From contig NC_042998.1 in assembly GCF_006345805.1 (NCBI RefSeq), positions 171,306,001-171,370,000 of the forward strand: a stretch of 64,000 nt of DNA, given 5' to 3'. The notes under the pieces were generated by a model, which did no database searches, was not told the DNA's origin, and saw only the letters and a list, made by a program, of their open reading frames with translations. This DNA is from Octopus sinensis. Its lineage: Eukaryota. Shown here in pieces: positions 43,480 through 48,089 of this stretch; the stretch's first letter is position 1; every line of letters starts with the position of its first letter. The position numbers and the translations under genes were made by a program.

Positions 43480-43689
43480 TCTACAAAAGGCACAAGGACT
43501 GAAATTTTGAAGGAAAGGACTAGTCGATTACATCGACGCCAGGATTCAACTGGTACTTAATTTATCAACTTCGAAAGGCTGAAAAGGCAAAGTCGATCCC
43601 GGTGACGTTTGAACTCAGAACATAAAGTCGGGCGAAATACCGCTAAGCATTTTCCCGAGGTGCTAACTATTCTACCAGCTCGCTACCTT
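43480..43689 (-). mobile_element. Family A SINE (diverged)
   Basis: AGGCAAAGTCGATCCCGG...TTTGAACTCAGAAC...CGAAATACCGCTAAGCATT...CCAGCTCGCTACCTT. Confidence 0.85.
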
Positions 43690-43726
43690 ATTATTATTAT
43701 TATCATTAGTAGTAGTAGTAGTAGTT

Positions 43727-43796
<70 letters not shown>

Positions 43797-43822
43797 GGAA
43801 TATCAATGGTATCAATTGTTCA

Positions 43823-43864
<42 letters not shown>

Positions 43865-43870
43865 TATATA

Positions 43871-44774
43871 CTAGCAGTATTGCCCGGCTTTGTGTGACTA
43901 TTAATCGCACTGAGGAAAATCGATTAATCTGCGAGTGAAAAATCAATACTTTCTTACACAATGTACGTACGTGCGCTCGTGCGTTTTATGCACGCGCGAA
44001 TTAGCTAAACTTGGATGAAGTTCAATCAAAATTCAATTATTTTGGTTTTAAAATCAAGCATTTAATGCCCTCTATTTTTGCGCTTATGTGTTCCATTTTC
44101 TCAATAGGAAGTATGTAGAAGCGTTTCATAATTTTTTGTTGATCAAATAATTGCATTGTTGAATTATTCCTTTAGATCAGTATTTCTCAACGGGGATTTC
44201 AGGGGAGAGTTTCAGGGAGTCGCTGGCGATGTATCGTGATGATCAAAAATCCGGCCTGCTAAAATTTGGTTAAAGTGATTCAAACTGCAGACTCAACACA
44301 AAATGGTCACATTTAATTCAAAGCGTTAAAAATGTTATGAAAACAATTGGTATGTGTTCACAAAGTCCAAACGATTAATACGAAAAAACCCTCCAGGCTA
44401 CATCCCGAAAATTAATTTCTTTGCCGAATTTCTACAATGTTTACGGCGATTCGTTTTTATATCTTGATTTTTTTATTTTTCATGCAATTTACGCATGCTT
44501 GCACGCGTGGTGAACACAGTTCACATCAAACAGCTGACTGAGTAAAGTTCACTATTCAATACATGGGATAAGGCCTAAACAAACACATTATCGATTTTTG
44601 CACTTGCGAGATGAATTTCGGAACAGAAATAGCGCAGTTCAATTTTCATTCGTCTAAACTTTAAGTGACCCATTTTTGGTGGTTCTACGATTTGTTGGCT
44701 AGGAGGAGATGTGCCGGGAAGTTAAACACACAGACACATACACAGATACACAAGTTGAGTTTTATATATATAGA
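43871..44774 (-). mobile_element. Non-autonomous Helitron
   Basis: Minus strand starts TCTATATATATAAAA and ends ...GCCGGGCAATACTGCTAG (decayed subterminal hairpin plus CTAG). Inserted between A and T, no TSD. Confidence 0.75.
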
Positions 44775-44809
44775 TTTATATATTGAACAATTGATACCGT
44801 TCATATTCC

Positions 44810-44863
<54 letters not shown>

Positions 44864-44890
44864 AATAATAAGGCAGCGAAAGCGAGAGAG

Positions 44891-44957: not shown

Positions 44958-45664
44958 CACTGGCTTATGTAGTCTGAATTCTTCATTTACCTTCAAAAAG
45001 CAATTTATCTGAACAGGATAAATTAAGCGAACGGACATTATTCAGAGTTGTTAGGAGAAGCTCATACAGCGATTACCATTAGAGAAAAAGATTGTTAGCA
45101 ATTGATCAAAGTGAAAGAAAAAGAGAACCCGCTTATATCCTATAAGATGGAGTTTTCATTGGATACAACTGTATACAGTTAATGATGCCGTATAACATGT
45201 GAGTCAGATGGCTCAATGAACAGTCTAGTTTTTGTCAAAGAAACCATCACACGATGAGATTAAGAGTGATCAAATCTAGTATCTAGTCATGACGACAGGA
45301 AAGTACGGTATAGATAAAAAAAAAATTATAATAGTTGGTGACATAAGAGCGATCGAAATAATTTCTTATCGCTCCCCACCGCACAAACATACAGGTTGAG
45401 GAACAACTCGCAATAACCGGTCCTGAGCATCGGTCCTGCAGAATCACTTTCTGTTCATCTCTTACCCGCGTGTGTCGACTTGCAATATTTTAAACGGAAC
45501 GTTAATAGCATGACTCTCACTCGTCCCGGAAAGGCTTGTAAAGGCCATGAGCTCTGACTCTTACTCCAGACCCTGCAAAATACAAAATATAGAAGACACA
45601 AGACAAAACAAAAAACAATAACAGCAAAAAATTACCCGTAAGCACACAAGCAAATATGCAAATA

Positions 45665-47513
45665 CAGTAGTACCTCGGTTTTCGAACAATTTGTTTCTTT
45701 ATTGCCCACACGGGGACAACATAAACGGGACAATACAGCCTGATTTGGGGTCAGACACACAAAATGAGATATAAAAATTTACAACGAATTCGAATGGAAA
45801 ATCGGATGGTAACACAAATTACGAAACAAATTGACAAACATGAAATGAGGCAGGGGAACAGGTTTTAGGCCTGACTCCACGAGCTCTGTTCCACTACCGA
45901 CACTTTTTGCTAAGCTCTATGAGATGTTCACGCAGTGTCTTTCACACACAGCATTCGTGCAACACGTGCCCATCTATCTTTGTACATTCTCGCTGACAGG
46001 CATCTCCTCTCCAGCCCCACTTTCCTTTTCAGGTGAAAGGGGAAAAATCTCATCAAACCGAGACCAGAGATGAAGCTGCCCGTCACCAATCATTTCATTC
46101 TCGACTTCCATATCACCTCTTTCGCGATTGCTACTACCACGACAAAACAATTCTTACCTTCTTTCGTAAGGAAATCCGGGGGTCAATTTTTAGAATTTAC
46201 TCAGAAGACAGTTGTACTCTTCTTGCATCTGACAACAGGTGTTCTGCATAAGTCCACACTTCTGACACTTCCGGACAGTGACCAATAGCGTGCAGGACGG
46301 TTTCCCAGTCCTTCTCGCATCTTGAACAGGCCGATGGGCCGAGATGGCCGTGTCTAGTGAGCTTATCCCGAACGGGTAAGGCTCTTCGGTAACACTGCCA
46401 AGCCAGAGACTTTTGGGAGTTATCCAGTGTCTTCGGCCGAATATCCTTTGGAACATACTGTCTAACTGATTATTATCGAGACTCAGGGTCTGCCCAGGGT
46501 CTGCCCCAGGGTGTCATCACATCCACCCTCTACCAACCTGCTATAAAAAGATTCGGTTGTACCAAAACCGCTGGCATTGCCCGAGCGACGGAACTGTACG
46601 AGAGCCTTAAGGCATTCTGTATACCAAGTACCCAACCTCGATCTTCGACGAAACCGGCTTTCTCATCCACCAAAACTAGTGAACCTGGGAAACATCCGTT
46701 TCGCAAGCGGAGACCACACTCGTTCACCATCCAGGTAAAGCCAGTGGTGCCTCAACCTCAACTCATATTTGCGCATCAACAGACAAGGAATCCCTAGCCC
46801 ACTCTTTAACAGTTTTTGACAACAGAGAGAACGTCTCGCAAGTGGAGTCGAGCCCTTCCACAAGAAGCGGAAGATCTGTCTCTCCAACTTGCTCAACCAC
46901 GAATCTGGACAAGGAACGACGGTTAAGCGGTAAATGATGATCGATGCGATGAATACATTAGCACCTCCTCCCTCCCTTTCAAGGAGAGCCACCGCCAAGA
47001 CCAGGTCTTGATTACGAGTGTCACTTTGTTCGATACCTCCGTCGATCCTTTTCTACCTGGAGATCTGGGCCAAACCAGACACCTAGCAACTTAACCGGAC
47101 CCTCTGTCCAATGTCTCACGACGCTATTCGAAGGCATCGACTTGCCCCTCCAGGTGCCGAGCTGCAAGCCGACTGATTTTTCCCGGTTAACCTTTGTTCT
47201 TGCCACCGTCTCGTAGGCATTAATGGTTTCACCTACCCTCTGTAGGTGTTCCATCTTGGTCACGATGATGGTGATGTCGTCCGCGTATGCTGAAACTGAT
47301 CCTCCACAACTTGGAATCGTCGGGATGTCACTCAGCTTTAGCAGCAACGGCTCAAGAGCCATCACGTACAAAAGTAGAGAGAGTGGACATCCTTGGCGAA
47401 TTTTTATATCTCATTCTGTGTGTCTGACCCCAAATCAGGCTGTATTGTTCCGTCTATGTTGTCCCCGTGTGGGCAATAAATAAATAAGTTGTTCGAAAAC
47501 CGAGGTACTAATG
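45665..47513. mobile_element. Composite element: Tigger/pogo-type ends with 115-bp inverted repeats enclosing an L1/Tx1 fragment
   Basis: TA|CAGTAGTACCTCGGTTTTCGAACAA... at 45665 and ...TTGTTCGAAAACCGAGGTACTAATG|TA at 47513. Inverted repeats 45665-45779 and 47399-47513. Confidence 0.85.
45690..47398 (-). mobile_element. L1/Tx1-clade LINE ORF2 3' portion (RT, zinc knuckle) and 3' tail, pseudogenised
   Basis: RQGCPLSLLLYVMALEPLL, VSAYADDITI, VNREKS, VKLLGVWFG, IFRFLWKG, CSRC....ETVLH....C. Tail ...GTGGGCAATAAAGAAAC. Confidence 0.92.
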
Positions 47514-48089
47514 TATATGTACAAGTACACACACACGCACACTCACACATACATTCATACATTCGCGCGCGTGCACACACACACAAACACACAAACCACA
47601 CAAAACCGCACATATCAATATCAATAGCCAAATCTGACTAAATTTATTCAGATGTCAGACTACTGGACGAAATGTTCGCAATGGAGACTGTTAGACGAAA
47701 ATATCCTTAGTGGAATTGCTATGAATCGCATATAAAGAAACGTAATCTTTCTTTATTAGTCTAGCTTCATTAACTATAATGAAAAGAGATTAAATTCATA
47801 GTTGTAGCAATCTATAGCTGATGAGGTTTTTGTTAGTTCGAGAAGATCAATTAAATTTTTCAGTTTCATTTTTTTACATGCAAATGTTTATATCGTCATT
47901 GATTTGGCGTCAGCATTTCGTCCACACATTGATAATTTTCTCACGTACTTTAATGTTTTGTCATCACCAGTCTATTTAAATGTTTTGTATTTGTATTGCT
48001 ACTAAAACAAAAATATAATGATGATAATGTTGGTAGTGGTGGTGGTGATGACGACGACGACGACGAGGATATTTGTCATCATCTTTGCT

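Follow-up and report, generated by a model that had tools for sequence, protein, structure and literature searches.

How can the 3′ tail of a LINE come to stand at both ends of a single element, in opposite orientations and joined each time to the same base of a transposon terminal inverted repeat (TIR)? This question is raised by positions 45663 to 47515 of the window, the stretch of 64,000 nucleotides of Octopus sinensis DNA analysed here, where two inverted arms enclose part of a LINE. The explanation that we prefer, with a probability of about one half, is that one insertion event involved priming by the LINE at its preferred site in each of the two TIRs of a MITE, whose interior was deleted in the process.

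Structure of the Composite Element

When aligned in inverted orientation, the left arm (45665-45779) and the right arm (47399-47513) were identical in 108 of 115 positions and differed by substitutions only. Apart from microsatellites, they were the longest inverted repeat between 43000 and 50500. Each arm combines 27 nt from a Tigger/pogo-type MITE end with 88 nt from a Tx1-like LINE tail; the TIR parts are 45665-45691 and 47487-47513, with two of the mismatches, and the LINE tail parts are 45692-45779 and 47399-47486, with the other five. The boundary between the 27 and the 88 nt was fixed by the 16-bp target duplications found at sister loci. The features are as follows.

45663..45664, no strand: TA at the left end, a target duplication that probably dates from the insertion of the MITE; most copies in the TIR family are bordered by TA
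45665..45691, plus strand: left TIR, outer 27 nt, Tigger/pogo-type MITE (122 pattern matches, control 0)
45676-45691: target site of the LINE, the inner 16 nt of the left TIR part (from the 16-bp duplications at loci C6 and C12)
45692..47400, minus strand: 5′-truncated Tx1-like LINE, its 3′ 1.7 kb, with the second half of the reverse transcriptase (RT), the C-terminal region with zf-RVT, the 3′ UTR and a short A-rich tail
46197..46469, minus strand: zf-RVT zinc-binding region of ORF2 (profile match)
47021..47400, minus strand: RT remnant from the QGCPLS motif onward, YADD present (positions 119-204 of 205 of the RVT_1 profile)
47399..47400, no strand: microhomology AA, 2 nt, between the long LINE arm and the inverted tail copy; the junction is unique in the assembly
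47399..47486, plus strand: second copy of the final 88 nt of the LINE, pointing outward (arm alignment)
47487..47513, minus strand: right TIR, outer 27 nt, with the third base of the terminal CAG altered (arm alignment)
47514..47515, no strand: TA at the right end (read from the sequence)

At this locus there was no 5′ target duplication, and nothing of the MITE interior was left. A tblastn comparison of 30 DDE_1 proteins of the same genome with 42 TIR-bearing loci, the focal one included, detected no transposase inside the composite. The initial annotation had described 115-bp inverted repeats with TA at both ends, outer ends of about 25 bp with the form of a Tigger/pogo TIR, some 90 bp of LINE tail fused to the TIR on each side, an enclosed minus-strand L1/Tx1 RT fragment and the absence of a transposase; all of this was borne out, with the lengths corrected to 27 and 88 nt.

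Another inverted repeat of the window, about 1 kb wide, pairs 43680-43843 with 44763-44879. It is made up largely of (TAA)n/(TTA)n tracts and holds a 79-nt pair with 94% identity.

The MITE Family

The 27-nt end belongs to a multicopy TIR family with a CAGT start, paired ends and TA flanks, as in Tigger/pogo-type elements. In all the other loci that were read (n = 29) the TIR ran on into MITE sequence, and none of the 29 carried the LINE tail; the tail is thus not native to the TIR. The MITE copies measured mostly 130-580 bp and commonly had a TA-rich microsatellite in the centre. Considering that the native inverted repeat was 23-74 nt long, mostly 40-60, and thus longer than 27 nt, the composite keeps only its outer part. 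A 132-nt copy of the MITE was predicted to fold as a near-perfect hairpin (z -16.6), which would bring the two LINE sites to about 80 nt from each other.

Four stretches with MITE ends (L234-L237) contained no transposase. L234 (G000:C4:76018463-76022525) is a two-ended copy of the focal MITE, the central microsatellite of which holds a different L1/Tx1-type LINE of about 3.7 kb with EN and RT; it is a TIR-bounded RT carrier produced by plain nesting. Inverted copying of the flanks beyond the MITE ends was seen at 2 of 20 distinct two-ended loci. In L041 (1468-1669) the outer flanks were mutually inverted over 35/35 nt, and in L235 over 207/211 nt, the latter being part of a roughly 5-kb fold-back in a small contig, perhaps an assembly artefact.

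The LINE Fragment and Its Relatives

The minus-strand cargo gave an RVT_1 match with an E value of 1e-10, confined to positions 119-204 of the profile, and a zf-RVT match with 1e-9; two of the three frames tested were positive. By comparison with a natural ORF2 stretch of 801 aa in a sister copy, the cargo begins at residue 328 and has 3 stops and 4 frameshifts, the endonuclease and the first half of the RT being absent. A functional RT cargo is excluded by the half RT domain together with these lesions.

The relatives of the LINE carry PF03372, PF00078, and PF13966 (endonuclease, RT, and C-terminal zinc region), and the ORF2 of the sister copy matched human L1 ORF2p with an E value of 1e-49 and R2 with 2e-23. 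Judging from these protein matches, the LINE is a member of a large L1/Tx1-type family whose ORF2 is nearest to L1 ORF2p. Its best named protein relative comes from an octopod, and no named Tx1 reference was among the database matches of the LINE relatives; we call it Tx1-like, tentatively, from the domain order and the target preference. Each of the sister LINE subfamilies had its own recurring 3′ flank, as expected of target-preferring Tx1 elements. At L020, a sister LINE stops about 30 nt upstream of an apparent histone H3 start, the 3′ flank encoding the peptide MARTKQTARK, which we take to be the beginning of histone H3.

A 24-nt motif of the LINE tail had 19,603 matches in the assembly. 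Thirty of them were inspected: 17 lay in a SINE-like repeat, 8 in one tandem array and 5 in LINEs. The SINE-like repeat (L107, L110, L112-L125, L135) is abundant, has its last 45 nt or so in common with the LINE family, and its 3′ flanks mostly start with GATA or TATA; this likeness suggests that it is mobilised by the LINE family. The array (L126-L133, G000:C1:44750713-44751009) consists of eight 39-nt tandem units, each with the LINE/SINE tail motif.

Two pairs of truncations nearly coincide. An independent LINE copy with an 18-bp duplication is truncated 3 nt from the focal 5′ breakpoint (L002:3207-3210), and the truncations of L008 and L018 lie within 1 nt of one another. They may hint at RT pause sites or at alignment ends.

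Target Preference inside the TIR

Two patterns for the junction of LINE tail and TIR, with up to 2 and up to 3 mismatches, gave five matches each and together six junctions at four loci. According to the patterns and to the alignment, the breakpoint was a single base in all of them. Outside the focal locus the junction was present at three loci, with one arm apiece. At C6 the MITE is complete and its right TIR holds a LINE that has an internal deletion and lies between 16-bp duplications; C12 has a tandem of two different LINEs at the TIR base, with 16-bp duplications, within a MITE; and in C1 a short LINE tail adjoins the identical base. A pattern for the 5′ junction had four matches, two genuine (C6 and C12) and two unrelated. 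There are then independent insertions with target duplications at one TIR base, in C6 and C12, and the same base was used in C1 and in the focal element. Of the 13 distinct LINE loci tested, 4 had clear target duplications, 16-18 bp long.

The LINE was also searched for with a query free of TIR sequence (best 40 of 521 candidates scored, 30 loci fetched). Of the 10 nearest copies whose 3′ end was intact, two were in the TIR site, the focal one included (2/30 of the loci fetched), and eight sat outside the TIR; the 3′ flank started with AG in 8 of the 10. The assembly of 2.7 Gb has 692 intact TIR target sites, and the probability of finding at least one of the 9 other copies at the TIR by chance was about 0.008, given a 6-mer target and three times that number of sites. 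PMC4494074 takes more than 20% of flanks in one repeat type as its criterion for a target-preferring Tx1 family; the share of 2/10 is at this threshold, with a small n, and far above chance. No junction between the SINE-like repeat and the TIR was among the matches of either tail/TIR pattern. A second near-full 5′ end of the LINE, at L167, follows a similar motif, with no recognisable copy of the focal MITE there. Taking these flanks into account, the LINE subfamily is one that prefers the TIR site without being confined to it.

The identical junctions at both ends of the composite can be explained because the LINE subfamily itself inserts at that base of the TIR, and the palindromic MITE would offer the target twice, with both nicks priming inward. 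The initial annotation had proposed that TIR and tail were copied from one end to the other; the three other loci make such copying unnecessary for the identical junction, and template switching is kept below as a possible, less likely route to the second arm.

Copy Number and Mobility

When the best 40 out of 4385 candidates were scored, only the focal locus matched the whole element. The inner junction, searched through the assembly with up to 3 mismatches, had one match, which was itself, and the focal locus was the only one of the four junction loci with two inverted tail/TIR junctions. Thus, of the two junctions for which a genome search had been recommended, the one between TIR and tail recurs at four loci, and the one between RT and inverted tail does not recur. 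With one inner junction and one two-armed locus in this assembly, we reject a mobile family or multicopy Pack-TIR, and the Pack-TIR class is also excluded by the cargo, which is wholly LINE and not non-TE host sequence.

The composite might still be a non-autonomous Tigger derivative that was born elsewhere and arrived by cut-and-paste. Both ends retain 27 nt of TIR and a TA flank, and pogo/Tigger transposases are abundant in the genome (150 DDE_1 matches scored, the best 150 of 3257 candidates), with TA-CAGT-type TIRs on 13 of the 30 DDE_1 elements checked. Against this, the single copy largely refutes the idea; the focal TIR was on 0 of the 30 top DDE_1 loci checked among those best 150; the native repeat has lost its inner half, and the terminal CAG on the right is mutated; and the TA flanks would be inherited from the host MITE under every model. 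We regard arrival by transposition as very improbable. The initial annotation had envisaged a mobile Pack-TIR-like unit and an autonomous Tigger with this TIR: the first found no support in the copy number, the dead RT and the transposase loci, and no example of the second appeared in those 30 loci. From its sequence the composite looks like a dead single-copy fossil rather than a mobile family, and no function is evident for such a lone, dead copy.

Relation of the Two Arms

An assembly error was considered, in which the right arm would be an artefactual fold-back of the left. Among the 32 matches listed (8876 more existed), no contig piece bridged 47398 or the right end, and a likely fold-back exists elsewhere in the assembly, at L235. 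Nevertheless, two positions that are derived in the left arm have the family-typical base in the right one, so that the right arm is no erroneous duplicate of the left. The differences between arms are substitutions only, the loop is 1.6 kb of non-repeated sequence, the right flank is unique, and contigs that run from the left flank through the TIR into the tail exist in two studies (X6 45000-45755; X8 45439-45756). A fold-back artefact is hence scarcely credible.

The arms share two variants, each of which was present in 1 of 20 other LINE copies and which occurred together in none of the 20; once L067 is included, only one shared variant is private to the arms. In a tree of the tails with 18 rows (4 of 22 were left out as truncated or short), the arms were a sister pair with support 84/74, modest, unstarred values obtained from 88 nt. 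Both arms, according to these sequence comparisons, are derived from one template lineage, so the common origin that had been proposed for the two tails held. The stem common to the arms was 0.012 and their end branches were 0.011 and 0.048, the median for independent copies being 0.048. Given end branches comparable to the ones of independent copies, and a short stem, the arms would have split at about the time of the LINE insertion. The divergence between them was 6/90, with a wide interval (2.5-14%) that leaves room for a lag between insertion and copying.

Origin of the Second Arm

One route to the second arm is copying after insertion. A single LINE insertion in the left TIR would have come first; the subsequent repair of a break or stalled fork close to the 5′ part of the LINE would then have switched template to the left arm at 2 nt, copied 88 nt of tail, and returned at the 27-nt TIR homology. 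This accounts directly for the variants shared by the arms, and it has parallels in the inverted flanks of L041 and L235 (the latter with the reservation made above) and in single-copy Pack-TIRs, the usual origin of which, as presented in PMC8277862, is gap filling with short microhomology. It also requires that a 2-nt switch span 1.6 kb, and the short stem of the arms (0.012) relative to their end branches leaves little time for a lag. In addition, the copy with the clean 18-bp duplication is truncated 3 nt away, which hints weakly that the RT fell off at the breakpoint (a coincidence with a probability of about 0.1, roughly estimated). Later copying is a possible origin, though we think it unlikely.

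Alternatively, two separate insertions from the same source lineage, one per TIR, could have been followed by deletion between the head-to-head copies. The TIR base of C12 was struck twice, the end branches of the arms resemble those of independent copies, and long inverted repeats are prone to deletion. The shared variants speak against it, as both together were in 0 of 20 other copies, and with junctions at 4 loci compared with some 700 intact sites, a double strike at opposite ends needs a local hot spot. Two insertions and a deletion seem doubtful to us, the more so than copying.

Priming at both TIRs remains as the favoured reading. The first nick would fall 27 nt inward of the MITE end with its 3′ end facing inward, as derived from the 16-bp duplications of C6 and C12 and standard TPRT. 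If the TIRs were both nicked, on opposite strands, the two resulting cDNAs would be made tail-first and would converge, one of 1.7 kb and the other of 88 nt; their ends would be joined at the 2-nt microhomology and the MITE interior replaced, which amounts to a target-site deletion. Three forms of this process are equivalent in outcome: two RNAs of one source, one RNA primed twice, or the fold-back of the first cDNA. Priming at both TIRs would leave a tail pointing outward on either side, remove the interior, create no 5′ duplication and join two cDNA ends, which is the structure observed. Classic twin priming was rejected, for it does not duplicate the 3′ end of the LINE.

Target preference, geometry, single copy, shared variants and microhomology are observations at this locus and its sisters; that both primings took place within one event we infer. 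RNA 3′ ends primed at an endonuclease site are found at both ends, with microhomology inside, a pattern that the competing explanations also predict; microhomology at the internal join is a prediction made for dual priming in PMC2837659. Besides the modest tree support and the wide divergence interval, further points count against this reading: in C12 one MITE was struck twice in succession, flanks were copied by fold-back at 2 of the 20 distinct two-ended MITE loci, the target preference is partial, and no ancestral or intermediate allele was seen. In a check for an empty site, a run with another organism label (X14) covered the right flank, had one contig with TIR and tail, and showed no depth over most of the left flank.

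A broader scenario has a slim chance of being right. A Tx1 family may have evolved to cut inside the TIR of a MITE, where the palindrome would give symmetric cuts at both ends and its own cDNA would replace the interior; this would yield TIR-bounded pieces of retroelement that a Tigger transposase could still move, as well as a predictable natural substrate for proving dual priming.

Comparison with Known Systems

Transposon-targeting Tx1 elements and two-tailed LINE bridges are known already, and the focal element is a variant of both. In literature searched outside subscription journals and repeat databases, we found no published description of a LINE that targets a TIR, or both TIRs. The passages of PMC13282606 that concern L1-Tx1 families give their counts only.

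The Tx1-clade LINEs described in DNA transposons in PMC4494074 are Tx1L in Tx1D of Xenopus, the crocodilian Tx1-Mar and SINEU in Mariner-N4_AMi, and Tx1-9_AMi in Harbinger. Like our LINE, they have a fixed site in a non-autonomous DNA transposon, duplications of about 16 bp, and tandem insertions that sandwich the duplication, as at C12. In contrast, the sites reported there lie away from the ends, at about positions 240 and 830 of Mariner-N4_AMi and near 300 of Harbinger, whereas the site of the focal LINE is inside the TIR and so occurs twice per MITE, in inverted orientation.

Dual priming of L1 was proposed in 2010 from 39 primate loci (PMC2837659), in which, in the account given there, the second arm was poly(T) only and the process was inseparable from twin priming. 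Those loci and twin-priming variants resemble the focal element in their opposite tails at both ends, one very short arm and a microhomology predicted at the internal join. The focal element differs from them in that its second arm includes 88 nt of unique 3′ UTR, the preferred site of the family is at both ends, and a target deletion is present. In the two-tailed L1 bridges that arise in tumours by synchronous insertions (bioRxiv 2024.08.27.596794), two truncated LINE pieces likewise meet at their 5′ breakpoints, and both ends have a tail and an endonuclease site. As reported, those bridges are somatic, join distant breakpoints and involve human L1, while the focal element is fixed in an animal assembly, local, and would be placed by a palindromic target. 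Single-copy Pack-TIRs, according to the part of PMC8277862 that deals with them, originate mostly by gap filling without transposition and have non-TE cargo. TIR ends around foreign sequence, a single copy and short breakpoint microhomology are common to both, but their breakpoints are biased to the interior, and the focal element has a TE as cargo and the LINE target site at either breakpoint.

Long TIRs with a LINE tail can arise without transposition, and annotation should take this into account. With 88 nt of unique 3′ UTR in the second arm at a preferred target, this is a type of locus able to separate dual from twin priming. A TIR-targeting LINE meets its site twice, in inverted orientation, which makes dual priming testable in vitro on a defined palindrome, beyond what could be distinguished at the primate L1 loci.
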